A DNA stretch of 64,000 bases from an uncultured Gammaproteobacteria bacterium (GTDB taxonomy: Bacteria > Pseudomonadota > Gammaproteobacteria > CAWJOP01). Of this stretch, positions 5,770 through 36,313 are shown in pieces; position 1 is the stretch's first letter; the number at the start of each line of letters is the position of its first letter. The position numbers were made by a program, and so were the translations under genes. The DNA lies in NCBI GenBank assembly GCA_963844535.1, contig CAWJOP010000008.1, positions 196,801 through 260,800 of the forward strand. Reading direction: 5' to 3'. A model generated the notes under the pieces. That model worked only from the letters and a program-made list of their open reading frames with translations, searched no databases and had not been told where the DNA came from.

Positions 5770-7035
5770 TTATTGTATCACATCCGAAGCATGTTTTGCC
5801 GATGGTTTTATACACAAAATAGCAAAAAGCGCCAATAAAGCAGTAAAAATCAAATAAAAGCAGGGCGCAATCACCAACTGAGTTTCATAAATTAACGCCA
5901 TAGCAATTAACGGAGTTAACCCGCCAAATAAAGCAAAACCAAGATTGTAACTGACGGCTACACCACTGTAACGAATTCGGGTAGGAAATAATTCCGCTAA
6001 AAAACTAGGAATAACGCCAAAAGCAAAACCAACGAGTAACGCACTAAACAATAGTGCCAGTAACACATAATTAAAATACTGCGTATATATGAAGAAAATA
6101 GGATAGGCAAGCAAGATCGTTAATATACTTAAAATTATTAGCAACCATTTATGGCTAACTCTATCAGCAACTATGCCAAAAATAATATTTAGCAATCCTG
6201 ATGCAAATATTGCTAGCGTACTAAACCACACATATTGATGTGCTTCTATATGCAACACATTGCTTAAATATGCCGGGGCAAATAAAAACAATAGCGTAAT
6301 ACAAGAAGCGCCTAGCCCTACGACCAACATACCCCCTAATGCATTGGCCAATTTACTTTTTAAAACGACCATAAGCGGAAAAGATTCGGTTTTATTTTCT
6401 ATCGCTTTAAATAACGCAGATTCTTTTAATTGTCTCCTTAACTTATAACTAAAAAATCCAAATATTCCACCGATAAAAAATGGTATCCGCCAACCCCAAG
6501 CTAACAGTACTTGTTCAGAAAAAAAGCTAACTAGAATTGCATGCATCAGCGAACCCAATGTAATACCAAGCTGTAAAGAGAAAAAAATAACCCCGCAAGC
6601 AAACCCTCTTCTTTGCGGTATCGATTCACTTACATATGCAATTGCTCCAGGTATTTCTCCGCCAACAGATAACCCTTGAAATATGCGTAAAATAGTTAAA
6701 AGAATCGGGGCTAAAATACCAATACTTGCATAAGGCGGAACTAGCCCGATGCAGAAAGTGGCTGCTGCCATCATGAAAATTGATAAGGTAAAAGTTTTTT
6801 TTCTGCCAAATTTATCGCCGAAATGTCCAAATAAAACCCCACCTAAAGGTCTTACCAAGTAGCCAATGGAAAATGTTGCAAATGTGCTAAGTAATGCGGT
6901 GATATTACTGCTTTCTGGAAAAAATTCTTTAGCAATGTAGCTGGCTAATAAGGCGTAGATAATAAAGTCATAAAACTCTAATATCCCGCCTAAGCCAGAG
7001 AGTAGTAATAATTTTTTTTGTGAGTTATCAATCAT
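5770..7035 (-). CDS. MFS transporter, metabolite:H+ symporter (ProP/KgtP-like) family
   Basis: 421 aa with 12 predicted TM segments. It carries the MHS signature GHFGDKFGRKKTF and the second-half repeat GWRIPF. Confidence 0.8.
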   Translation of the reverse strand: MIDNSQKKLLLLSGLGGILEFYDFIIYALLASYIAKEFFPESSNITALLSTFATFSIGYLVRPLGGVLFGHFGDKFGRKKTFTLSIFMMAAATFCIGLVPPYASIGILAPILLTILRIFQGLSVGGEIPGAIAYVSESIPQRRGFACGVIFFSLQLGITLGSLMHAILVSFFSEQVLLAWGWRIPFFIGGIFGFFSYKLRRQLKESALFKAIENKTESFPLMVVLKSKLANALGGMLVVGLGASCITLLFLFAPAYLSNVLHIEAHQYVWFSTLAIFASGLLNIIFGIVADRVSHKWLLIILSILTILLAYPIFFIYTQYFNYVLLALLFSALLVGFAFGVIPSFLAELFPTRIRYSGVAVSYNLGFALFGGLTPLIAMALIYETQLVIAPCFYLIFTALLALFAILCIKPSAKHASDVIQ

Positions 7036-7043
7036 ATAACGAT

Positions 7044-7742
7044 CTACAAAGCCACAATATGCAAATGCTCATCTTCAAGATAAATTTGTGTACCCTTAGT
7101 CAATGCGGTTTTTTTTGCTTCCTCATTAACCCAATAATGTCCTGCAATTGAAACTAATTCTGCTTCTAGCGTTTGACAAAAAATTCTTGCCTGTTTATTA
7201 CCTTTTACTCCAGCTAATGCCCTGCCTCTTAGTGGTCCATAAATATGAATATGTCCATCAGCAATTAACTCAGCACCTGGGCTCACTGACGCTAACACAA
7301 TAAGATCTTTATTCTGCGCATAAATTTGTTGGCCTGAACGCACTGGTTGAGTAATCACCACCGCAAAATTCTCAACTGGAGGATCAAGTGATTTTACTTC
7401 ACTGCCATGTTCATCTTTTATTTTGGTAGAGCGATTTAAAATCGCCCAATTGGCTAATACGGCTTTTTTCTGTTGTGATTCACTGCCACCACAAATAGCC
7501 ACTGGAATAAAACCTTCCTTTCTTAAGATTTCATTTAACTTTACAAAATCCAACTGCTCAATGGTATGTACTTTTTGCAAATCAACCATGAGAGGAATAT
7601 GCTGAAAAAATCCTGGATTTTTCTGAATCAATGTATTTAATTGCTTGGCAAGACTATTAAGGTCATCCGATAAAAGCTGCAATACTGTCAAAGTAAAAAT
7701 GCTGCCTTTAAGCTGAAAAGCTACCTGATTTTTGGTTATCAT
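7044..7742 (-). CDS. minC: septum site-determining protein MinC
   Basis: 232 aa. The C-terminal domain [66 protein letters not shown] matches the MinC beta-helical dimerisation domain. No minD or minE lie downstream in this window. Confidence 0.85.
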
Positions 7743-9242
7743 TGTTTTGTCTCCTCTCCTTTTAGATCCTGTTTAGAATCTCGCCACACCAAATTAAGTT
7801 CTCTGGCTGCTTTAACATCATCGAGACGACGAACAGGTTGATGATAAGGCGCTTTTTTCAATTGGTCTGGATTAGTAGTAGCCTCTTTTAAAATTGCAAT
7901 CATTGCACAAGCAAATCCATCCAACGTTTGCTTCGATTCCGTTTCAGTTGGCTCAATTAATAAGCATTCTGGAACTAACAAAGGGAAATACATCGTCGGT
8001 GCATGAAATCCATAATCAAGTAAACGTTTGGCAACATCCATAGCCGTCACACCAAATTGTTTTGCTTCTTTACTTAAGGTAATAATAAATTCATGGCTTG
8101 CACGTCTTGCAGGAAAAGCGAGGGTAAATCCTGCTTTTTTGAGTCGAGCCATTAAATAATTTGCATTTAATGTTGCAAATTCTGCAACTCGTTTAAGGCC
8201 TTCTCGTCCTAACAAACGTGCATAAATATAAGCACGTAAAATAATTCCGGCATTCCCCATAAAAGTAGATAATCGTCCAATCGTTTGTGGACGATCTATC
8301 TTTATCAACCAACATAACTATCACCTTTTTTGCCTACAATCGGTGCGGGTAAAAAAGGCACTACACGTTCACTAACCGCCACTGGCCCGACCCTGGACCA
8401 CCACCACCATGCGGTGTAGCAAAAGTTTTATGTAAATTAATATGCATAACATCAAAACCCATATCACCTGGTCTTACTTTGCCTAAAATGGCATTAAGAT
8501 TTGCGCCATCGTAGTATAAGAGCCCACCCGCTTGATGCACTAATTGCGCAATTTCTTCAATATGCCTTTCAAATACGCCTAATGTCGATGGATTAGTTAA
8601 CATAATCCCCGCAGTTTTAGGGCCAACTGCTTTTTTAAGTTCTTCAAAATCCATATCACCATCAGCTTTCGTCGGAATTTCGCGAACTTTAAAACCACAC
8701 ATCACTGCTGATGCTGGATTAGTCCCATGCGCTGCATCTGGCACTAAAATTTCATCACGCTCATGATCACCACGCGCTAAATGATAAGCGCGAATCATTG
8801 CAACTCCAGCAAACTCACCTTGCGCTCCAGCCATTGGTGTTAACGAAACTCCCGCCATACCAGTGACTTCAATTAAAATTTCTTGCAAATCATAAACGCA
8901 AGCTAAAAATCCTTGACTGTGAATTTCTAGGGCTAATGGATGTCATTGTAAAAAACCTGGCATTGAAGCAATCCGATGCACCCCGCGAGGATTGTATTTC
9001 ATGGTGCAAGATCCCAGCGGATAAAAATGAGTATCAATCGAAAAATTCTTCTGTGACAATCTCGTGTAGTGCCTTACAACTTGTAATTCAGAAGTTTCAG
9101 GCAAAAGAGGTTTCGTACGTCTTAACAACGCCGCCGGTAAATCACTGCTATCACCCAAGGTTCCAAGCAACTGTGCACCAGCATTTCGGCCTTGTTGTGA
9201 ATATTCAAAAATGGTTTTATTTTCTAAATCGAGGATGGTCAT
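7739..9242 (-). pseudogene. gcvPB: glycine dehydrogenase (decarboxylating) subunit 2, GcvPB, disrupted by at least two 1-bp frameshifts
   Basis: Three consecutive minus-strand ORFs at 8943..9242, 8361..8888 and 7739..8308 together encode the N-terminal, middle and C-terminal parts of a ~485-aa GcvPB (FYPLGSCTMKYNP.., HGTNPASA.., [20 protein letters not shown].., [10 protein letters not shown].., [17 protein letters not shown]). One shift is a CC-for-CCC run at ~8370 that turns GSGP VAV into GSGQW. A second shift lies near 8306-8312, and another is between 8888 and 8943. Confidence 0.7.
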
Positions 9243-9279
9243 AGTTGTCTTCTTAATAAATATAAAATGACAGTTCTTT

Positions 9280-10662
9280 TTAAACTGATGCGCATGAGTT
9301 TTCGCTGATATAACAGCGCTTAACCGCCTCACAAAATACCTCTAAATCCCTTTCACTCTTTGTCTCAGTCGCACAAATCAATAAACATTCACCCAATTCT
9401 GGATAATGCACTGAAGTTGCATAACCTCCTTCGATACCAAGACGAGATAATGCTAATAATATATCAGCCGCTTTTTTCTCCGTACGAACTAAAATCTCAT
9501 GAAAATAAAGGCGATTAAATACCGGTAAAATTCCCGGAATTTTCGTAATCTTATTGAACAGTTTTCGGGTATTTTCATGGCAATTTATTGCAACTTGCCG
9601 TAATCCTTCTGCGCCCATTAAACTCAGGTAAATCGTAACTGCAGTAACTAACAACCCTTGATTAGTACAAATATTAGAAGTCGCTTTAGCACGTCGAATA
9701 TGTTGTTCACGCGCTTGCAAGGTTAAAGCAAATCCTGGTTTGCCATCTAAATCTACTGTTTTGCCCACAATACGCCCCGGCATTTGTCTGACATAGGCTT
9801 CTTTACAACACATAAAACCTACATATGGCCCACCTGAAGCTAATGGCACACCTAAAGGCTGCGCTTCACCGCAAACAATATCTGCACCGGTTTCTCCCCA
9901 TTTACCCGGCTCTTTAAATAACGCCAAAGCAAGCGGGTTAACCACTGCAATCACTAAAGCACCTTTGCGATGTGCCCAATCTGTTAATTGATCCACTTCT
10001 TCTAAAATTCCAAAAAAATTAGGCTGCGGAATAATCAATGCAGCAATATCTGTATCGCCTAATGCATTTAATGATTCAAGCGGTGTATTCCCTTCTGTAA
10101 AAGAATAAGGCAAATCAACCAATTCAATTTGCTGCGGCGTAACAATAGTGGAAATCACTTCACGATAGTAAGGATGTAACGTTTTTGGCACTAATATACG
10201 TCGAGATTTCGTTTGACGATTAGCACGAACTGCCATGAAAACCGCTTCTGCCAAAGCAGATGCACCATCATACATCGAGGCATTAGAAACATCCATGCCG
10301 GTTAAACTTGCCATCATGGTTTGATATTCATACAAAAGCTGCAAAGTTCCTTGACTTGCTTCTGCCTGATAAGGCGTATATGCAGTCATATATTCGCCTC
10401 GGCCGACAATATCCCAAACTGCTGCTGGAATATAATGTTCATATGCGCCTGCACCAATAAAACATAATGATGAAACGTCCTGTTCGGCATATTCACGCAT
10501 CAGTTTAACTACTGCTAATTCAGACAAGCCTTCCGGAATTTTAGTGGATAATTCTTTACGTAGATTTTTAGGAATTTCATCAAATAAGCTTTCAATTGAA
10601 GGGCTATCAATTTCTGCTAACATTTGTTGAACATCATTTGCTGTATGTGGAATAAATGGCAT
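9280..10662 (-). CDS. gcvPA: glycine dehydrogenase (decarboxylating) subunit 1, GcvPA
   Basis: 460 aa with typical GcvPA motifs ([27 protein letters not shown]). It sits between gcvH and gcvPB. Confidence 0.9.
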
Positions 10663-10680
10663 GAAAATTTACCTCAAAAC

Positions 10681-11067
10681 TTAGCTTGACCCAATATGTT
10701 CCTCATAAATTTTTGCATCCAGCAAATCGTTTAAGCTTGAGTCACTGACTTTAAGCTTAAATAACCAACCTTCTCCATAAGGACTGCTGTTGATCAATTG
10801 TGGTTCATCATTTAGCTTTTCATTAATCGCTACCACTTCGCCTGACAACGGACTATAAACATCGGCAGCAGCTTTAACTGATTCAACCACACTGATCTCT
10901 ACACCTGCTTCTGTAGCACGATGAATTTCTGGCAATTCGACATAAACAATATCGCCTAACAAATGCTGCGCATGATCCGTAATACCAATGGTATAAGTGC
11001 CATCCGCTTCTTGCCGCACCCACTCATGAGTACGCGTATATTTCAGTTCAGTTGGAATGTTATTCAT
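10681..11067 (-). CDS. gcvH: glycine cleavage system H protein (lipoyl carrier)
   Basis: 128 aa with the lipoyl-lysine region [18 protein letters not shown]. Its start overlaps the gcvT stop by 4 bp. Confidence 0.9.
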
Positions 11068-21151: not shown

Positions 21152-22126
21152 TTATTCCAACACATCAAGCAGATAACCAATAATTCTTCTTTCCAAATAA
21201 AATTGCGGGGAAAATGGTACACGCCCTTCAATGAAACCCACATGCCCTCCATACGATAAAATTTCTAGTTTAACCTCGACAGGAAGCTCGAGTGGATTAG
21301 GCAAGGCATGCTTGGGGAAAAAAGGATCATCGGCCGCTTGAATAATTAAAGTGCGCGTTTTAATTCTATTTAAATACTGTTGACTGCTCGATCTTGCGTA
21401 ATAATCATGCACATCCAAAAAACCATGCATTGGTGCGGTTATTTTGTCATCAAACTCCCAAAAAGTAGTTACCCTATTGAGTTCTTTTTTATGTTTAAAA
21501 AGTCTTTCACTGGACTGAAATTTTTTTAATACCGCTTTTTTTAAAGACTTTAATAACCACCACTGATATAGTCGTGAAAATCCTGTATTCAATTGATTTG
21601 CTGCTTGCTTCAAATCAAACGGCACCGAAACAGCAACTGCAGCATTAATGCGCAGGTGATTGGGATTCTCAGCCAACCATTTTAATAACACATTGCCACC
21701 CAATGAATAACCAATAATACAAACAGCAGTATCCGCGTTGATATTTGCCCATAGACTTGTGAGAAATTCAGTTAAATCTTGAGTTTCTCCCGCATGGTAA
21801 CCCTTTTTTAACCGTGTTTTATCTTGATCGTCACCACAACCTCTAAACTGCATACAAACACTTCTAAAACCATATTCAATTGATTTTTGCATCATGCCTT
21901 TTATATAAGCCGAAGCAGATGAACCACCTAACCCATGTAAAAACACTAAAATAGGCTTATTTTCAAACCTATTTTTACTCCAATCAAGCAAAAGAAAATC
22001 ACCATCGGATAAAATAAACTTTTCTCGTAATAAAGAGATTTTTATTTTCCTTGGAAAGATAACCGGAAAAAGAGTTTGTAGATGCCTGTTTTTCAGCCAC
22101 CAGGCAGGTTTAAAAGCAGTTAACAT
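21152..22126 (-). CDS. alpha/beta-fold hydrolase, YheT-like
   Basis: 324 aa with a nucleophile elbow GYSLGGN and an HG oxyanion motif (LVFLHGLGGSS). The architecture resembles E. coli YheT-family esterases. Confidence 0.8.
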   Translation of the reverse strand: MLTAFKPAWWLKNRHLQTLFPVIFPRKIKISLLREKFILSDGDFLLLDWSKNRFENKPILVFLHGLGGSSASAYIKGMMQKSIEYGFRSVCMQFRGCGDDQDKTRLKKGYHAGETQDLTEFLTSLWANINADTAVCIIGYSLGGNVLLKWLAENPNHLRINAAVAVSVPFDLKQAANQLNTGFSRLYQWWLLKSLKKAVLKKFQSSERLFKHKKELNRVTTFWEFDDKITAPMHGFLDVHDYYARSSSQQYLNRIKTRTLIIQAADDPFFPKHALPNPLELPVEVKLEILSYGGHVGFIEGRVPFSPQFYLERRIIGYLLDVLE

Positions 22127-22149: not shown

Positions 22150-22262
22150 CTGTTGACAATTTATCTCAAACCCTACGTTCCCGCGGCTTGTCCGCGGGAT
22201 CTATGGAGCAGGATCCATGGATCCCGCGAACAAGTCGTGGCAGCGGCACGTCGCAGGGTGTG
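22150..22262. repeat. family A REP-like palindromic element (long form)
   Basis: TTGACAATTTATCTCAAACCCTACGTTCCCGCGGCTTGTCCGCGGGATCTATGG..GGATCCATGGATCCCGCGAACAAGTCGTGGCAGCGGCACGTCG. It lies upstream of the divergent hydrolase and DUF2282 genes. Confidence 0.55.
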
Positions 22263-22335: not shown

Positions 22336-22632
22336 ATGCTCAAAAAAAATCAAATACTTCAATCAGCTATTGCTGGCGTTCTTGCTTTAACTTCAGTAAA
22401 TCAAGCCAATGCGCACAACGCTGTAACTTCACCAGAAATGGAAAAATGTTATGGCATTGTCAAAGCAGGAATGAATGATTGCCAAACCTCCAGTCAAAGC
22501 TGTGCGGGCTCTGCCATTAAAGATAAACAGTCTGACGCTTTTATTTTTTTACCTAAAGGAACTTGTCATAAAATCGTTGGTGGAAGTTTGCAACCGCCAG
22601 TAGTACAAAATGATGATAAAAATAAAAAATAA
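22336..22632 (+). CDS. DUF2282 (BufA1-type) Cys-containing RiPP precursor with a signal peptide (bufferin-like)
   Basis: 98 aa with a Sec signal peptide. The core EKCYGIVKAGMNDCQTSSQSCAGSAIKDKQSDAFIFLPKGTCHKIVGG has the four Cys spacing and the EKCYG..AG.NDC..SCAG...GTC motif of DUF2282 precursors, which MNIO (DUF692) enzymes modify. Confidence 0.75.
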   Translation: MLKKNQILQSAIAGVLALTSVNQANAHNAVTSPEMEKCYGIVKAGMNDCQTSSQSCAGSAIKDKQSDAFIFLPKGTCHKIVGGSLQPPVVQNDDKNKK

Positions 22633-23475
22633 TGCCACTGGTATTGGTCTTCGCGCCACACACTATCATGAAATCATAAGCAATCAGCCTAAAATTACTT
22701 GGCTTGAAGTACATAGTGAAAATTATTTTGGCAAAGGCGGAAAACCGCTCAATTATCTAACTCAAATCCACCAACACTACCCGCTCAGCTTTCATGGGGT
22801 AGGACTATCACTAGGATTCTACTGATCCACTCAATTTGCTTCATCTTAAACAACTGAAAAAACTGATAGATCAATTCAATCCTATTTTTATTTCTGAGCA
22901 TTTATGCTGGTCGTCAATTGACGGACGCTATCTGCATGATTTATTACCATTACCTTATACTGAAGAAGCTTTAAATTTATGTATTGATAAAATCAATCAA
23001 ATTCAAGATTTTTTGAATCGTAAAATTTTAATTGAAAATATTTCGAGTTATTTGCAATTTACTGATAACACCATGCCAGAATATGAATTTATCAACAAAA
23101 TTGTTGCGCAAACTGGCTGCGGGATATTATTAGATCTCACTAATCTTTACATTAATAGTGTTAATCATCATTGGGAACGTTGCACTTTATTTACAGCATA
23201 TTCCAACACACACTATAGATGAAATTCATCTGGCTGGATTTACCACAAATCATTTTGCAAATGGTTTCATGTTGATTGATACTCATGATCAAGCGATTGA
23301 TGCAAATGTGTGGAAATTGTATACGCAAGTTATCAGTAAATTTGGGCCAAAACCTACGCTTATTGAATGGGATAAGAATATCCCCAAATTATCCACGCTT
23401 TTAGCCGAAGCCGAAAAAGCTAATGGTATTTTATTAAACAATAATCTCGCCAAACATGACTATATCCTTACGTAA
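22613..23475 (+). pseudogene. DUF692/MNIO (MbnB/BufB-like TIM-barrel oxidase) gene interrupted by two frameshifts
   Basis: Three overlapping ORFs at 22610..22825, 22836..23222 and 23158..23475 together reconstitute one DUF692 protein (GIGLRATHYHEI.., WLEVHSENYF.., HGVGLSLG | STDPLNLLHLKQLK..SEHLCW.., LLPLPYTEEAL.., ILIENISSY.., GCGILLDLTNLYINSVNHHW | ALYLQHIP.., IDEIHLAGF.., LIDTHDQ.., PTLIEWD). One shift is an extra T at ~22818 and the other a 1-bp loss at ~23185. Confidence 0.65.
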
Positions 23476-24289
23476 ATTACAACTTGCTTTTAGACATGCC
23501 ATATTGGGCGATAAAAAAATTTCATTAAGTTCGCATATCGAGCAAAATGGTCTTACCTCTAAACAAAGGATACAAATTTACCAAAATAATGTTTTCTTCA
23601 CTTTAACTGCGGCACTAAAAAGCATTTATCCTACTATTCATCAAATACTGGCAGAACCATCTTTCTTAGCTATTGCACATCATTACATCGTTCGTTATCC
23701 ATCGAACTTCGGCGACATCAGCTCTTTTGGCATGCACTTTGGAAAGTTTCTGGCTAATTCCTTAGCAACAAAATCTTTTCCCTATTTAAAAGAAATAGCT
23801 AATTTAGAATGGGCTTACCATGAAGTATTTCACGAAGAAGAAGTTGAATACTTCGAACTAAATAAGCTAAAAACAGTCTCAGCCGAAAAATATTCACAGA
23901 TAAAATTTAACCTAAATCCTGCTTGCCGCTTACTTTCCTGCAAATACCCTATTTTATCGATTTGGCAATATTATCAGCAGCAAAAAACGTCGCCGTTTTC
24001 GCCGTCATTGCAAGCACATCATTGCGAGGAGCACTTGCGCCCCGTGGCAAATGATGCGTGTGGCAATCCAACGCCACAGAGGGAAAAAATACTAATTATC
24101 CGGCGATCATCAGACATTACATTTGAAAAATTAACCGAAGGTGAATTTGCTTTATTGTCTGCTTTTAGCAAAGGATTGGCTTTCAAACAATCACATACAC
24201 TTGCATTAAAATCAGATATGACATTTAATATTGAAGCCTATTTAAAACAAGCTGTTTTACAAAAAATTATTGTGGATTTTTACTTTTAA
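23456..24289 (+). CDS. DUF2063-family protein (MbnC/BufC-like partner of MNIO)
   Basis: 277 aa. It sits 3' of and overlaps the MNIO gene, as in DUF692-DUF2063 pairs. The N-terminal region (QLAFRHAILGD.., IYQNNVFFTLTAALKSIYPTIHQILAEPSF..) is consistent with DUF2063. It contains a segment encoded by a degenerate family C repeat. Confidence 0.6.
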   Translation: MTISLRKLQLAFRHAILGDKKISLSSHIEQNGLTSKQRIQIYQNNVFFTLTAALKSIYPTIHQILAEPSFLAIAHHYIVRYPSNFGDISSFGMHFGKFLANSLATKSFPYLKEIANLEWAYHEVFHEEEVEYFELNKLKTVSAEKYSQIKFNLNPACRLLSCKYPILSIWQYYQQQKTSPFSPSLQAHHCEEHLRPVANDACGNPTPQREKILIIRRSSDITFEKLTEGEFALLSAFSKGLAFKQSHTLALKSDMTFNIEAYLKQAVLQKIIVDFYF

Positions 24290-26003: not shown

Positions 26004-26035
26004 TTAGTTTATTTAAAGTATTATTACACTTGCTC

Positions 26036-26150
26036 AGTCCCCTTCCCGTGAGGCCGTCATTGCGAGCACCTGTAGGGTGCGAAGCAATCCAGAAATTATA
26101 AATATTTTTACTGGATTGCCACGCGCTTCGCGCTCGCAATGACGGTCTTA
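26036..26150. repeat. family C palindromic element (GTCATTGCGAG...GCAATCCAG...CTCGCAATGAC)
   Basis: ..CCCTTCCCGTGAGGCCGTCATTGCGAGC..GAAGCAATCCAG..CTGGATTGCCACGCGCTTCGCGCTCGCAATGACGG... It has both outer and inner inverted repeats and is a near-copy of the element at 35258..35410. Confidence 0.55.
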
Positions 26151-26271
26151 CGAAGTAGAAACTAAGCTTTTACATTTCTATTTCAAGCAATTAAAAATTT
26201 TTCCTATCTAAATATTTTTTTGACTCTTCAAAAAAATGTGATACCTTGTTCGCTTTTTTCCTAGGGCCTGT

Positions 26272-26433
26272 TTACATTTGATTTGCCATAGCGAGAAAAG
26301 CAGGGATGTAAGCTAGAAGTTTGCCAAATCTGAGGAGAATACTAAGTCGTATTTGACGAAGATTCGGCAAAATTCTAGCAAATCCTATGCTTTTCGCAGC
26401 AGGTAAATCAAATGTAAACAGGCCCTTTTTTTT
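26272..26433. repeat. ~150-bp long imperfect hairpin with perfect 23-bp terminal inverted repeats and a 3' T8 run; candidate sRNA or MITE
   Basis: GGCCTGTTTACATTTGATTTGCC at 26273 pairs with GGTAAATCAAATGTAAACAGGCC at ~26403, followed by TTTTTTTT. The interior also partly self-complements (GCGAGAAAAGCA / TGCTTTTCGC). It lies just upstream of the autotransporter gene. Confidence 0.4.
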
Positions 26434-26455: not shown

Positions 26456-29014
26456 ATGCTTCATAATTTTAATTATTTAAAAAACAATTGTTCGCTTTTT
26501 TTAATAGCCTTATCTTTTTTAGGCTTATTTTCTCAAGCTGCATTTGCCACCACTTATCAATGGAATGTAGTTTCAGGTGATTGGGAAACAGAATCTAATT
26601 GGCTTCCTATGACTCCCCCGGGGCCACCTACCAGCGCAGATACTGCAGAGATTGATAACGGTGGAACTGCTATAGTATTCGCTGGGGATAATTCTTTAGC
26701 ATCAACCGTCAATTTGGGTGTCAACACTACTTCAAATATATTAAATATCGATGCAGGTGGTACGCTCAACATTACTAACAACCTTAACATAGCAAGTACT
26801 GCTACTTCTTCTGGTGCATTAACTCTTATGGGCCAGTTGTTTGTTAATCAAATTCAAGCGGGTATGGGCACTGCGGTTATTAACTTTAACGGCGGAACCT
26901 TACAAGCTGGAACTACTTCTGCATCGAACCTGATCGTAGGCGGATTTGCTTCCAGTAACTTAAACATCGAAAGCGGTGGACTCACCATTGATGACCAGGG
27001 CAATAACATCACTGAAAACCCTTCAGATATGTTTGGATTTAGTGGTCAAGGTAGCTTTACTAAAACGGGCACCGGTGTTGTGACCTTCAACGACCTCACC
27101 AATAATTATCAAGGTGATACGACGGTTGCCGAAGGTACGTTAACCATCAGCGGCGGTACCTTAGGCACCGTGAATGGCAATATCCAATTAGCGACCCTAA
27201 GTAATGCCACCTTAAATATTAATAACGGTGCTGCAGTCACTGCGAATACCGTCACTTTAGGTGACCCAGCTGGAACCCTTAATCTCGGTGGTGGCCCTGG
27301 CTCTCCAGGTACTTTGAGTACCAATCAGTTGATTGCAGGCAATAGCGGAAGTGTGGCTAACTTTAATAATGGCACATTAATCGCACTTTCCAGCAATGCT
27401 AACTTCATCACTGGGTTTAGCAGCGGTAATTTGGTCACCAATAGTCCAGATGGTGTGATTATCGATAGCAATGGCTTTAATATTGGGGTTGCGGATAGTG
27501 GATTTACGGGTAATGGAGGTCTTACAAAAACCGGCGCGGGTACGCTGACATTAAGTGGTACGAATACCTACTCAGGTACTACGACGATTGATGAAGGCAT
27601 CATACAGGCAGGGGCTGCTAATACCCTTAGCCCATTTTCCAATCATGTGGTTGATGCTAATACTGAGCTTAATCTTGCTGGTTTCCCACAAACGATTGCT
27701 GGGTTAACGAATAACGGGTTAGTCTCCTTAGCAGGTACTACGGCTGGAAATCAACTCACGGTGACTGGGAATTTAGGTTCTGGTAACGGCACTTTTGCAT
27801 TCTTAACCAATTTAGGTGCATTAGTGGGTGATCATATGAGCGTCGGAGGAACCAGCGCAGGCAGTTACCTAGTTCAAGTCACCAACCAAGGTAACAATCC
27901 AACGACTCCAGGTCAGTCCTTAGAACTTATTTCTACTACGGACGGTGTGGCTCAATTTGCGTTACAAGGTGGACAAGTTGATGCAGGTATTTTGGTATAT
28001 ACCTTACAAGAAGGCTTAGGCGTACCGGGTACTGAAGACAACTGGTATCTTGTGAATAGTGGCTTAACGCCTACGGGTAAGAACATCGTTGCAACCGCGT
28101 TGACTCCATCGATTTGGGCGACCCAGTTTGATGATGTGTACAAACGTATGGGTGAGTTACGTCAAGGAATCTGCCGATGCTGTGATGGTTGTGCACGCTA
28201 TGGACAAATCAAAAATAATGTATGGGTCCGTAATTACGATGAGCGTATCAACGTTAATAGCGATGTTGCTGGCGATCCGTTCCATGTTTACTTATACGGT
28301 GCTGACGTGGGTATAGACAAAGGCTTTACCACAGCCTGTGGCAATCAAGTGTTTGCTGGTGCGTTCTTAGGATACGGAAGAAGTAGTCCTATCTTCTCAT
28401 CATCATCAGGCAGTATAGATACCAATGCACCTTATGCGGGTGTTTACGGTACTTGGTTGAATCAATGTGGTTGGTATGTAGATGGCGTTGTTAAAGCACA
28501 ACGTTTTTACAATAAATTCAATACATTGACTACATCCGGCAGCAATCTAGATGACACAACCTATAACCAGTGGAGTGTAGGCGCGTCTGCTCAGGCAGGT
28601 AAACGCTTCTGTGCAAAAAATGGCTTCTTTGTTGAACCACAAGCGCAAATTACCTATACACACTTTAATGGAGCAAACTATATAGCTGATGATATTTTCC
28701 CAGTAAGTGTTGGCAACACGGAAATAACTCAAGCTAGAGGCATGTTAATGGTCGGTCGTACATTTAACCAATGTGGAAAATTCTTTGAACCTTACGTAAA
28801 ATTCGGAGAAGCTACACAAAATAGCCATGGTACTAATGTTGATGTTGCCGGAATGCACTTTCGTCCTAACTTAGACGGGGCACGAACTGAAGTAGGTGCA
28901 GGGTTTGCTTATGGATGCAACCACGTACAGTTCCATGCTGATTACAAAGCGGTTAACGGCCCAGATTACAATATTCCATGGGCAATTAACGTAGGCTTCC
29001 GATATATCATGTAA
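26456..29014 (+). CDS. classical (type Va) autotransporter with passenger-associated beta-strand (PATR) repeats and a C-terminal beta-barrel
   Basis: 852 aa with a signal peptide. The Gly/Thr/Asn-rich passenger has repeated TGxGTLTLSG.NTYSGxTTI units (autotransporter-associated beta-strand repeats). The C-terminal ~280 aa have alternating aromatic/hydrophobic residues and end in ..NVGFRYIM. Confidence 0.85.
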   Translation: MLHNFNYLKNNCSLFLIALSFLGLFSQAAFATTYQWNVVSGDWETESNWLPMTPPGPPTSADTAEIDNGGTAIVFAGDNSLASTVNLGVNTTSNILNIDAGGTLNITNNLNIASTATSSGALTLMGQLFVNQIQAGMGTAVINFNGGTLQAGTTSASNLIVGGFASSNLNIESGGLTIDDQGNNITENPSDMFGFSGQGSFTKTGTGVVTFNDLTNNYQGDTTVAEGTLTISGGTLGTVNGNIQLATLSNATLNINNGAAVTANTVTLGDPAGTLNLGGGPGSPGTLSTNQLIAGNSGSVANFNNGTLIALSSNANFITGFSSGNLVTNSPDGVIIDSNGFNIGVADSGFTGNGGLTKTGAGTLTLSGTNTYSGTTTIDEGIIQAGAANTLSPFSNHVVDANTELNLAGFPQTIAGLTNNGLVSLAGTTAGNQLTVTGNLGSGNGTFAFLTNLGALVGDHMSVGGTSAGSYLVQVTNQGNNPTTPGQSLELISTTDGVAQFALQGGQVDAGILVYTLQEGLGVPGTEDNWYLVNSGLTPTGKNIVATALTPSIWATQFDDVYKRMGELRQGICRCCDGCARYGQIKNNVWVRNYDERINVNSDVAGDPFHVYLYGADVGIDKGFTTACGNQVFAGAFLGYGRSSPIFSSSSGSIDTNAPYAGVYGTWLNQCGWYVDGVVKAQRFYNKFNTLTTSGSNLDDTTYNQWSVGASAQAGKRFCAKNGFFVEPQAQITYTHFNGANYIADDIFPVSVGNTEITQARGMLMVGRTFNQCGKFFEPYVKFGEATQNSHGTNVDVAGMHFRPNLDGARTEVGAGFAYGCNHVQFHADYKAVNGPDYNIPWAINVGFRYIM

Positions 29015-33590: not shown

Positions 33591-33660
33591 CTAAAAACTT
33601 TGGGTATTACTAATGAATAAGCGCGCTTCGGCTAATGGGTCGCTTGAAAAATGTGGATAG

Positions 33661-34285
33661 GTGTCATTCCCGCGAAGGCGCACTAGTGTCCTGGAGAGCT
33701 GTAAATAGGCAAGCTGTTTTTCTGTAAAAAAATAAAAATATACATCCCCTCTCCCAGCCCCAAAGCATAAAAAAATCTTCGGGTTTTATCCTGGGAGAGG
33801 GCCAGGGTGAGGGAGATCAAATAAACTTTGCTATCTCTTCTCTAGTTCGGTTAAAACGGTATCTAATATTTCGTCCACATGATTGAACATTTCATTATTC
33901 CAAAAACGAACCACTTTATATCCTTGCTTTTCTAAAAATGCTGTACGTTTTTTATCATATCCCTGTGAAAACGCATGTTGACCACCGTCGAGTTCAACAA
34001 TTAATTTTTTATAATGGCAAATAAAATCAACAATGTAAGGGCTTATCATTTCTTGTCGCTTAAATTTATAGCCCTTTAATCTTCTATTTCTTAAAAAGTA
34101 CCACAATTGAGTTTCTGCTTCAGTTGCTTTTTTTCTTAGTACCTTCGCATGATTTATTGGTTGTACCATTTTGTGGTTTCCCCTCACCCTGGCCCTCTCC
34201 CAGAATAAAACCCGAAGATTTTTTTATGCTTTGGGGCTGGGAGAGGGGATGTATATTTTTATTTTTTTACAGAAAAACAGCTTGC
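33661..34285. mobile_element. family B palindromic element with ~105-bp terminal inverted repeats that carries a single DUF559 endonuclease gene
   Basis: The left arm is GCAAGCTGTTTTTCTGTAAAAAAATAAAAATATACATCCCCTCTCCCAGCCCCAAAGCATAAAAAAATCTTCGGGTTTTATCCTGGGAGAGGGCCAGGGTGAGGGAG. The right arm at 34178-34285 is its near-exact reverse complement, and each arm has its own internal hairpin. The arms are homologous to the cargo-less copy at 18080..18405. Confidence 0.65.
33831..34169 (-). CDS. DUF559 (restriction-endonuclease-like/Vsr-like fold) protein encoded inside the family B element
   Basis: 112 aa from the ATG at 34167-34169: MVQPINHAKVLRKKATEAETQLWYFLRNRRLKGYKFKRQEMISPYIVDFICHYKKLIVELDGGQHA...KQGYKVVRFWNNEM. 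This matches the conserved core of DUF559 proteins (YIVDF.C...LIVELDG..H, VLRFWN). The start abuts the right terminal repeat. Confidence 0.75.
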   Translation of the reverse strand: MVQPINHAKVLRKKATEAETQLWYFLRNRRLKGYKFKRQEMISPYIVDFICHYKKLIVELDGGQHAFSQGYDKKRTAFLEKQGYKVVRFWNNEMFNHVDEILDTVLTELEKR

Positions 34286-34441
34286 TACATTTTTAATCTG
34301 TTGTTCATCAACAATTTGTGGTTTTGCAGTCATATCGTTATAAAATCCTTTTGCTCTTGCGTTTTTACAGTAAATAGTGGATAAAACTAATTATTATTCT
34401 GCCCATTATATAAAAGTCATTTGCACTAATCGAACATCACT

Positions 34442-35257
34442 ATGGCAAAACCTATCTACGACACTATTGGCAAAAGTTATGATAACACGCGTCAAGCTGA
34501 CCCAGAGATTGTTAAAAAATTGCTGGAATTACTTGGCCCAATAGAAAAAGGAAAATATTTAGATCTTGGTTGCGGTTCTGGCAATTATACGGGTGCTTTA
34601 GCTGCAATGGGATTAACCATTGAAGGGGTTGATCTTTCTCTTGAAATGTTAACAAAAGCGAAAACTAAATACCCTAATGTTTTGTTCCATCAAGGTGATG
34701 CAAAGCAATTAGCTTTTCAAGATAATTCATTCAATGGTGCAGTATCTATTTTAGCTACTCATCATATTGGCGATAATTCTAAACTATTTCACCAAGCTTA
34801 TCGCATTATTAAGCAGGGACGACTGGTAATTTTTACTGCCACTCCTGAACAAATGCAGCATTATTGGCTTTGGCATTATTTTCCTAAAATGATGCAAGGT
34901 TCTGCTGCCATTATGACAAGTTTTGACAAATTAAAAGCAACATTAGAACAAGCTGGATTTAGCTCAATTGAAAAATATCCTTTCTTTATCTCCAATCAAC
35001 TACAAGATTGGTTTTTGCATTCTGGTAAATACCGTCCTGAAATATATCTTGATGAAAAAGTACGCGCAGGAATTTCATCATTTCAACTATTTGCTAACTC
35101 AGCTGAATTGACCCAGGGGCTAAAACAACTTAAAGCTGATATTGACTCAGGTGAAATTGATAAAGTCATTGCGCACTATGCAAGCGATGAAAGCGATTAT
35201 TTGTTTATTTCTGCTGAAAAAAGTGTAGTATTTATCGATGGCTTTAGTCTCATGTAA
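34442..35257 (+). CDS. class I SAM-dependent methyltransferase
   Basis: 271 aa with motif I LDLGCGSGNYTGALA and a post-I acidic residue GVDLSLEML. Its TAA stop lies within the terminus of the family C element. Confidence 0.8.
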   Translation: MAKPIYDTIGKSYDNTRQADPEIVKKLLELLGPIEKGKYLDLGCGSGNYTGALAAMGLTIEGVDLSLEMLTKAKTKYPNVLFHQGDAKQLAFQDNSFNGAVSILATHHIGDNSKLFHQAYRIIKQGRLVIFTATPEQMQHYWLWHYFPKMMQGSAAIMTSFDKLKATLEQAGFSSIEKYPFFISNQLQDWFLHSGKYRPEIYLDEKVRAGISSFQLFANSAELTQGLKQLKADIDSGEIDKVIAHYASDESDYLFISAEKSVVFIDGFSLM

Positions 35258-35410
35258 AAGCTTAGTCTCTCCCGTGAGGCCGTCATTGCGAGGCTTGAGT
35301 TTTTTGCAAGCCGAAGCAATCCAGCAAAGAAATTTAAGCATTTTTACTGGATTGCCGCGCGCATCCTGCGCTCGCAATGACGGCCTCACGGGAGAGGCTG
35401 AGCTTTTACA
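35258..35410. repeat. family C palindromic element, most complete copy (~150 bp, ~33-bp terminal inverted repeats)
   Basis: GCTTAGTCTCTCCCGTGAGGCCGTCATTGCGAGG..GCCGAAGCAATCCAGC..GCTGGATTGCCGCGCGCATCCTGCGCTCGCAATGACGGCCTCACGGGAGAGGCTGAGC. It sits between the methyltransferase stop and the EamA gene start. The internal ORFs at 35147..35389 and 35238..35459 are artefacts of the palindrome. Confidence 0.6.
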
Positions 35411-35431
35411 GTCTTATTTGGAAAATTTGTT

Positions 35432-36313
35432 ATGTTGGCTTATCTTTTTCTCTTTTTAGCACAAATCATGGTTGGTATTAGTGTAGTGGGCTCAAAGTAT
35501 TTGATTGCATTCATGCCTGCTATGGTTTTATTAACCGTACGATTTAGTTTAGCAACATTGGTTTTATTCCTTTTACACTATCTGTGTAATGGTCATACCA
35601 GCTCCATTCGCGTCGATCTGGAAAAGTTAAATAAAAAAGATTGGCAATTCATTTTTGCCGAAGCTTTATGTGCCGGTGTGCTATTTAATTTTTTAATGCT
35701 ATTAGGTTTAAATTATACAGATGCTAATGTAGCTGGCATTATCATGAGCGCCTTGCCGGCTCTTATTGCCGTTTTCTCTTTTGCAATTTTGAAAAAAAAA
35801 CTTTCCACTAAAAAATGCTTTGCAATTGCATTAGCTACTCTTGGTTTATTAGTCGTTAGTACCAACGAGTTTTGCCATGCACAGATAAAACACTCCATTT
35901 TAGGCAATTTAATTATTTTTCTATCGTTAATGCCAGAAGCGGCCTACTATATCTTAAGTAAATTACACCCTAATAAATTACCCATTTTTCTAGTCGCTGG
36001 ATTAATGAATGGTATCAATGCGATTTTATTGCTACCTACTTTAGTTTTATATTCAAACTGGCAAATAGCTCATTTTTCGCTGCTACAATGGACAATTTTA
36101 GGGTTGGTAAGTATTGCTTCTGGGTTATTTTATGTTTTTTGGTATGCAGGTTCTCACAAAACAGAAGGTGTCACTGCTTCACTTTCCACTGCTTTGATGC
36201 CTATAGCAACAGTCATTATTGCTTGGGTAACATTAGGAGAAGCAATTAATATGATTCAATTAGCAGGAATGGGGCTAGTGATAGCTTCAATTGTTACTTA
36301 TACCTTTTCATAA
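35432..36313 (+). CDS. EamA/DMT-family drug-metabolite transporter
   Basis: 293 aa with 10 TM helices in two EamA repeats. Confidence 0.8.
   Translation: MLAYLFLFLAQIMVGISVVGSKYLIAFMPAMVLLTVRFSLATLVLFLLHYLCNGHTSSIRVDLEKLNKKDWQFIFAEALCAGVLFNFLMLLGLNYTDANVAGIIMSALPALIAVFSFAILKKKLSTKKCFAIALATLGLLVVSTNEFCHAQIKHSILGNLIIFLSLMPEAAYYILSKLHPNKLPIFLVAGLMNGINAILLLPTLVLYSNWQIAHFSLLQWTILGLVSIASGLFYVFWYAGSHKTEGVTASLSTALMPIATVIIAWVTLGEAINMIQLAGMGLVIASIVTYTFS

Follow-up and report, generated by a model that had tools for sequence, protein, structure and literature searches.

The stretch analysed here, 64,000 nt of DNA from an uncultured gammaproteobacterium and hereafter called the window, contains four loci of a palindromic repeat called family C: two full copies, one solo arm of 27 nt and one copy lying in frame inside a gene. 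One of the full copies, W1, overlaps the end of a methyltransferase gene. The features considered below are the following.

15753-15840, no strand assigned: spacer between mlaD and mlaC, with no family C copy and half of a different CGTC REP dimer
21122-21148, plus strand: solo outer arm (remnant), resembling the left outer arm of W2
24003-24071, plus strand: intragenic REP unit, in frame in a DUF2063/HvfC gene (ORF 23456-24289), about residues 183-206
24018-24050, plus strand: nested addition within that unit, ATCATTGCGAGGAGCACTTGCGCCCCGTGGCAA, 33 nt or 11 codons
about 26029-26176 (left start at 26029 or 26032), plus strand: W2, full copy, delimited by alignment with three other copies
26055-26092, plus strand, and 26111-26144, minus strand: the two REP units of W2
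34442-35257, plus strand: class I SAM-dependent methyltransferase gene (Pfam scan)
35147-35389, minus strand: ORF through the W1 palindrome, probably spurious, with a palindrome-derived peptide
35238-35459, plus strand: partner ORF of the preceding one, probably spurious
35253-35410 (158 nt), plus strand: W1, full copy, delimited by its arms, its fold and its full-length homology to three other copies
35253-35280, plus strand: W1 left outer arm, TGTAAAAGCTTAGTCTCTCCCGTGAGGC, including the methyltransferase TAA at 35255-35257
35281-35324, plus strand: W1 left REP unit, CGTC-ATTGCGAG-GCTTGAGTTTTTTGCAAGC-CGAA-GCAAT-CCAG, the bracketing parts enclosing a side hairpin seen in the fold
35325-35346, plus strand: W1 central loop, CAAAGAAATTTAAGCATTTTTA, asymmetric and common to the copies in a four-copy alignment
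35347-35382, minus strand: W1 right REP unit, CGTC-ATTGCGAG-CGCAGGATGCG-CGCG-GCAAT-CCAG
35383-35410, minus strand: W1 right outer arm, the inverted-repeat arm

All four copies claimed in the original prediction are real, with some coordinates corrected, and chance explains none of them. The core motif GTCATTGCGAG, with at most one mismatch, occurs six times in the window against 0.74 expected. Both full copies have wider borders than had been proposed, W1 starting at 35253 and W2 spanning about 26029-26176. The arms of W1 (35253-35292 and 35371-35410) are 40 nt long and 95% complementary, longer than the terminal repeats of ~33 bp first described, and the inner inverted repeat described with them is present at 35316-35328 and 35343-35355. 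Folding of the W1 RNA, a check that had been suggested, gave a very stable hairpin (-107.4 kcal/mol, z = -15), and the DNA fold reached -64.5 kcal/mol (z = -14). In the predicted fold, a single strand of W1 is paired over a stem of 39 bp that leads into a three-way junction. W1 has the same orientation as its flanking genes, its polarity being set by the asymmetric central loop.

The well-paired arms of W2 (26047-26067 and 26132-26152, 90%) measure only 21 nt because the outer arm on the right has diverged into a variant, GGTCTTACGAAGTAG..AAGCTTTTACA; the left terminus of this copy is degenerate. The same variant arm occurs in M2, a full copy on a related JGI metagenome contig (L135). M2 is chimeric, with a left half like that of W1 and a right outer arm of the W2 type. 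The solo arm matches the left outer arm of W2 at 24 of 26 positions (21122-21147), a match not seen in any of 100 shuffles, and it breaks off within the CGTC tag (..GAGGCCGT|A). It had been described as a remnant abutting a hydrolase stop codon; this identity holds, and the arm, at 21122-21148, ends 3 nt from the stop (21152-21154; gene 21152-22126, minus strand). The alpha/beta hydrolase encoded there is about 7 residues shorter at its end than the orthologues on two other contigs (L137 and L138, 74% identical at the DNA level), and the 3' end of the gene, directly beside the solo arm, may have been remodelled by the element. In total, family C was counted at the four loci of the window and in two further copies, M1 and M2, on contigs of one JGI metagenome.

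The full element is a palindrome of about 155 nt. Its two REP units are arranged as an inverted pair, with tags outward and tails inward, and each has the anatomy CGTC-ATTGCGAG-variable hairpin-CGNR-GCAAT-CCAG: a CGTC tag, the stem ATTGC/GCAAT of 5 bp, an internal loop, an inner hairpin that varies in sequence yet is always self-complementary, and a CCAG tail. All units of W1, W2, M1 and M2 read CCGTCATTGC, and units in the lineage of the window are 33-44 nt long. The right unit of W1 is nearly identical to the intragenic unit found in a relative (L136) and described below. An asymmetric loop of 18-22 nt separates the units, and since this loop is conserved among copies the element has a polarity. 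Around the pair lie outer arms of 25-28 nt with a consensus of about TGTAAAAGCTYAGYYYCYBCCCGTGAGGC. Family C is a small, non-coding, hairpin-forming "selfish" DNA repeat, made of paired CGTC-tagged REP palindromes and extra outer arms. The original reading of a dispersed palindromic repeat family is supported by the loci seen here. Added to it here are the CGTC REP pair at the core, the wider borders, a nested piece in one copy and a presence/absence polymorphism in a close relative. The inverted-doublet anatomy and the lack of matching models ruled out a CRISPR array, an attC site, a tRNA-like element and a riboswitch, and no tRNA genes were found.

CGTC-tagged REPs have been divided into families CGTC-1 to CGTC-4 and include RPE-4 and RPE-6 of Rickettsia and dRS3 of Neisseria (Di Nocera, De Gregorio and Rocco 2013, PMC3733652). 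They are defined by CGTC at one end, a stem of 8-9 bp that begins with AT, a loop of 4-5 nt and an unpaired tail near CCA, with atypical loops allowed for the CGTC-1 elements of Bradyrhizobium; they occur mostly as inverted dimers downstream of ORFs, sometimes within genes, and are stated to have no associated transposase (PMC3733652). The peptides encoded by dimers (Additional file 3 of the same paper) imply a tag-outside order (PMC3733652). By its sequence, family C is a member of this superfamily in an uncultured gammaproteobacterium. It has the same tag, AT-first stem and CCA(G) tail (CGTC-AT-TGC...GCA-AT-CCAG), both full copies in the window are tag-outside inverted dimers, and the position downstream of ORFs and the occasional in-frame intragenic copies are shared as well, as is the lack of a linked transposase so far as the window shows. 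However, a plain stem of 8-9 bp with a loop of 4-5 nt makes up the published units, whereas in family C a stem of 5 bp leads through an internal loop into a variable hairpin, and the dimer is additionally enclosed by lineage-specific outer arms of 25-28 nt. The known CGTC REPs are also mainly alphaproteobacterial, while the host of family C is a low-GC uncultured gammaproteobacterium. A second repeat family of the window (CGTC-CCGCGG-CTTGT-CCGCGG-GAT-CCA) matches the published stem and loop sizes even better than family C.

QMITE2 of Coxiella burnetii is a further parallel. It measures 150-190 bp, and its full-size copies have terminal inverted repeats (TIRs) of 24-29 nt around a REP core, whereas the smaller versions have no TIRs and amount to little more than the REP element (Wachter et al. 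2018, PMC5896051). Most copies lie in 3' UTRs and overlap gene C-termini by a few bp, the predicted folds range from about -85 to -113 kcal/mol, and the core has BLAST matches in Bradyrhizobium and Rhodopseudomonas (PMC5896051). Compared by description, family C resembles it in size, in the combination of REP core and TIRs, in the 3' position, in the overlap with a C-terminus and in the kinds of hosts that carry the unit. QMITE2 differs in that it contains a GTAG REP and that its full-size copies are flanked by direct repeats of 7-11 bp (PMC5896051), neither of which was seen in family C.

REPINs, the doublets of the REPIN/RAYT system, reportedly consist of two inverted REPs and a short spacer that replicate as one long hairpin. 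They produce no target duplication, and singletons are decayed remnants of doublets. The tag of REPINs is GTAG, and they occur together with a RAYT gene that has REPs on either side. Family C is alike in its inverted-pair hairpin, in the absence of a consistent target duplication and in its decayed singletons, but its tag is CGTC and not GTAG, and no RAYT was found in its window or is known for the CGTC class. In Rickettsia, palindromes of the RPE type are said to lie in frame in apparently functional genes and to encode a peptide placed in a loop. The longer RPE-1 type, of 100-150 bp, is inserted whole. Family C likewise has an in-frame copy within a gene whose peptide falls in a loop; in contrast to RPE-1, what lies within the gene is a single unit (35 nt in L136, 68 nt in the window), the full element being found between genes. 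Intragenic CGTC REPs and RPEs have both been described (PMC3733652).

Orthologues of the methyltransferase (14 aligned) end in ..AEK followed by 0-5 residues, whereas the protein of the window has an 11-residue tail that ends in a TAA belonging to the element. This codon (35255-35257) corresponds to nt 3-5 of the W1 terminal repeat (TGTAAAAGCT..., TGTAAAAGC), so that the stop codon of the predicted gene is supplied by W1, from within the terminal repeat and not merely at its junction as had been supposed. The two ORFs dismissed earlier as artefacts of the palindrome do exist as reading frames (35147-35389 and 35238-35459), and their peptides across the palindrome, ..PSLRGLSFLQAEAIQ.. and ..PRNDGLTGE.., are typical of translated REPs. 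For annotation, the element thus accounts for two spurious ORFs as well as for the C-terminal extension of 11 residues and the borrowed stop codon of the methyltransferase.

In ORF 23456-24289, which has Pfam matches to DUF2063/HvfC_N, the intragenic copy reads GTCATTGCAAG...GGCAATCCAA, its tag side and its tail being slightly decayed. The finding of the same residues in orthologues had been named as what would speak against an inserted copy. Orthologues at 59-60% identity lack the REP-encoded segment, and the 81% orthologue on L136 has one clean unit of 35 nt, GCCATTGCGAG-CACAGGATGCG-CGTT-GCAATCCAG, at the same place. Alignment with this orthologue opens a clean gap of 33 columns; the extra piece in the window is a further, incomplete REP core lodged in the loop of the older unit's inner hairpin. 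The copy, placed correctly in the DUF2063 gene and described as degenerate, is an old unit of the HvfC gene with a later nested addition of 33 nt in the window, where the unit measures about 68 nt. The HvfC sequences offer a dated series of states, from no unit to one unit to one unit with a nested piece. In an AlphaFold model of the protein (mean pLDDT 80.8), the REP residues lie in the only internal stretch below 50 pLDDT (residues 179-202), which is consistent with a tolerated disordered surface loop; the element accounts for this loop of 24 residues. Between bufA (DUF2282) and hvfC, the mbnB/DUF692 gene is split into three ORFs in the window (22610-23475). It is an intact gene of 294 codons in L136 and is missing altogether from three other relatives (L137-L139); the split version may be a pseudogene or reflect a sequencing frameshift.

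Tolerance of palindromes in coding sequence, proposed from the gcvT case among others, was upheld by comparison with a relative. The gcvT gene (11064-12269, minus strand) contains a palindrome of 127 bp (11146-11272) with perfect arms of 28 nt, in frame in the C-terminal part, and L135, about 97% identical in DNA, has some 16 unrelated nt at this site. Evidently another repeat family inserted here in frame, and recently.

To assess the distribution of the unit beyond the window, the pattern GTCATTGCGAG-N8-30-GCAATCCAG was scanned in IMG/VR viral contigs. Among the matches listed, it was present in more than 120 contigs, which are GC-rich prophage or GTA-like regions. Units in the listed contigs are mostly 29 or 35 nt long, GTCATTGCGAG is preceded by C in 163 of 193 units, and of 46 pairs of neighbouring units 40 form plus/minus doublets, mostly 15-20 nt apart. 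Judged by this pattern, the family C unit is abundant in alphaproteobacterial prophage contigs. A scan with tag and core, in a genome collection that does not include the genome of the window, gave matches in Bradyrhizobium, Methylocystis, other Alphaproteobacteria and a Rokubacterium. Covariation is seen in the inner hairpin: among 30 distinct 35-nt units, both sides have changed in four of five base pairs with pairing kept, and two-sided changes fill 20 cells against 4.1 expected, a value reached in none of 500 shuffles.

The outer arms gave a different picture. Their pattern had no match in the viral contigs, and in JGI metagenomes it was found on two contigs, both from one metagenome, of which one (L135) is about 97% identical to part of the window. 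Eight matches obtained in the genome collection with outer arm plus tag were unrelated (Bradyrhizobium, Methylocystis, Rokubacteria). The outer arms thus appear to be local to the lineage of the window, whereas the inner REP unit appears widespread. A blastn search of a plasmid collection with W1 gave no match, and a literature search with the motif strings returned chance matches to primers only. One viral contig (L051, 5283-5490) carries four head-to-tail repeats of 59 nt, each made of one CGTC unit and a second GC-rich hairpin; this cluster is a rare tandem arrangement of the unit and not a CRISPR array.

Close relatives differ in their copies. L135 is 95-97% identical to window positions 6827-18056 and carries M2, a full family C element, between mlaD and mlaC, where the window has a different segment of 86 bp; in more distant relatives (MurA 85-90% identical) the spacer measures only 13-25 nt. 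Because the copy is present in L135 and absent from the window, and the distant relatives have the short spacer, the element was gained or lost recently, within about 3% divergence. The swap spans the whole spacer and also takes in the final two codons of mlaD and its stop. Since this is no clean insertion, recombinational replacement rather than transposition could explain this polymorphic site. At the W2 site, L136 (89% identical from bufA to yceI) is unrelated right after the yceI stop, over the only 78 nt of L136 that were compared. No empty site for W1 was found among the methyltransferase orthologues because these are not syntenic, and an exact-protein look-up of the methyltransferase returned only one contig of 1 kb from a public sequencing run, broken inside the palindrome.

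The polymorphic spacer bears on the idea that the element is itself immobile, and serves as a recombination hot spot or attachment target at which insertion sequences of the IS110/IS1111 type, phages and other REPs replace one another. The mlaD-mlaC spacer does hold family C in one relative and half of another CGTC REP in the other, and there are published precedents in IS1111 inserting into QMITE2 and in REPs as targets of insertion sequences. However, no insertion sequence or integrase adjoins any copy seen, and W1 is about 89% identical to M1 and M2 despite their unrelated sites, with polarity kept. This identity at unrelated sites and the conserved polarity imply that the element itself was copied, and we regard an immobile hot spot as highly improbable.

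Taken as a whole, the observations are best explained by family C being a non-autonomous, hairpin-forming mobile repeat, a reading to which we assign a probability of about 0.72. Another possibility is that the element has been kept because it is useful as RNA, either as a stem-loop of the 3' UTR, ending transcription or shielding the mRNA upstream of it, or as the precursor of an sRNA. All four full copies (W1, W2, M1 and M2) do lie 3' of an ORF, three in the same sense as their flanking genes and one between convergent genes, and RNA folding gives highly stable structures (-107 kcal/mol, z = -15, and -69 kcal/mol, z = -10). Mismatches between the arms, both in W1 and for the variant arm of W2 and M2, are G-T on the sense strand and therefore still pair as G-U, the termini AAAAGCU...AGCUUUU would place a hairpin before a U run in either direction, and REPs and QMITE2 are reported to be transcribed and to be sources of sRNAs (PMC3733652, PMC5896051). 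Yet a terminator scan gave no site at W1 or W2, whose U run is 4 nt long and itself paired, unlike that of an intrinsic terminator. The folding asymmetry between strands is also inconsistent, the sense strand folding better in W1 and M2, the antisense strand in W2 and both equally in M1. Rfam gave no match at the gathering score, its sub-threshold hits being to generic long-hairpin models. These were miRNA models and the Wolbachia WsnRNA46 model (21.7 bits against a cut-off of 65.3), and we treated them as uninformative. The comparison of relatives weighs further against a conserved function: the element lacks orthologous conservation, being present or absent at about 97% identity and missing from the ancestral mlaD-mlaC junction, and a solo arm or in-frame coding copies would make no sense as RNA elements. 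Selection for an RNA role is therefore unlikely as the explanation of the family.

The element could also be a classical MITE, that is, a deletion derivative of an insertion sequence with a DDE transposase, moved by cut-and-paste through its 40-nt terminal repeats and carrying the REP units as passengers. Its long terminal inverted repeats (40 nt in W1), its size of about 155 bp and its lack of coding capacity agree with this, as does the description of full-size QMITE2 with TIRs and direct repeats of 7-11 bp. Moreover, GTCTCA and GTCTTA flank W1 and could be an imperfect target-site duplication of 6 bp. W2, M1 and M2, however, have no flanking direct repeat, so that a duplication of fixed length is lacking. 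Among the full copies the termini ..TAAAAGCT and AGCTTTTA.. are kept in the four-copy alignment; with only four full copies compared, neither these termini nor the lack of a target duplication can be called well defined. Insertion sequences with the same ends were looked for in the window, in the viral contigs and among the metagenome matches, and none turned up. In addition, it is the inner REP pair that is conserved across phyla and not the termini, and the rearrangement junctions lie at the REP tag instead of the element ends: the solo arm breaks at CGT|A, and the nested 33-nt piece runs from (A)TCATTGCGAG to GCAA. An origin as a classical MITE thus seems very unlikely.

For a non-autonomous repeat mobilised in trans, copies would be made or moved by an enzyme whose gene lies elsewhere. 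As an analogy with the RAYT/TnpA(REP) HUH tyrosine transposases, which act on GTAG REPs, suggests, this enzyme may recognise the folded single strand and cut at or beside the CGTC tag. The copies seen lie mainly just downstream of genes, where the terminal TGTAAAAGC can provide a stop codon at the gene end, and single units that land in surface loops can survive in frame like the RPEs of Rickettsia. Transcribed copies may double as passive 3' stem-loops, a secondary role that their position and orientation make plausible, although the terminator scan, Rfam and the strand asymmetry of folding lend it no support. We searched for candidates for the enzyme in several ways. Pfam and NCBIfam scans of most ORFs of at least 150 aa revealed no transposase in the window of 64 kb. 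Four RAYT/TIRYT sequences used as tblastn queries had no match in the window or in 144 further loci (1.3 Mb in all). Across 120 viral contigs, no gene was recurrently linked to the unit and nothing resembled a REPtron; only phage structural genes recur near it, because of the nature of the collection.

A bolder proposal is that the lineage holds a currently active CGTC REP system, whose junctions would show where the mobilising enzyme cuts and joins. Single cores would then leave by excision at the tag and insert again into hairpin loops of single-stranded DNA. The proposal is suggested by two independent junctions at a unit edge, the solo arm ending at CGT| and the nested piece extending from (A)TCATTGC to GCAA, and this piece sits exactly in the loop of the inner hairpin of another unit. 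We consider it quite unlikely. If true, it would explain why the inner hairpin is variable in sequence and length beside an outer frame that is conserved across phyla, and the near-identical metagenomic strains could reveal the long-missing CGTC 'transposase'.

CGTC REPs are a widespread class whose means of spreading has been unexplained since its description in 2013. Near-identical strains of the present lineage differ by the presence or absence of copies and offer material for working out how REPs move. Family C adds to a known class and brings no new principle; its value lies in the strain polymorphism and in the stepwise intragenic series.

Several other repeats were noted in the window. 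The second family of CGTC-tagged REP dimers, with the unit given above and outer arms of its own (TTGACAATT...), is found at 18523-18592, at 22175-22253 and at about 15760-15810. Its 18.5-kb copy is missing from L135, and its 22.2-kb copy is missing from L136, which has a short hairpin at the site (AGGGCCTGTTTACA..TGTAAACAGGCCCT). Just downstream of W2 lies a palindrome (26263-26426) with arms of 25 nt (AGGGCCTGTTTACATTTGATTTGCC) that are 114 nt apart, and its motif AGGGCCTGTT recurs upstream of bufA, at about 22145 in the window and also in L136. A DUF559 (endonuclease-like) ORF (33831-34187, minus strand) is located between inverted repeats rich in GGGAGAGGG (33657-34290). Such repeats without the ORF are found at 18074-18406, where L135 has about 1 kb of unrelated sequence that is dehydrogenase-like by eye; the two loci look like an autonomous element and its miniature derivative. 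Finally, an ORF at 55555-57282 (minus strand) has weak Pfam matches to F-box and beta-propeller domains and an autotransporter is encoded at 26456-29014, which may point to a life in association with a host, as in Legionella-type bacteria.
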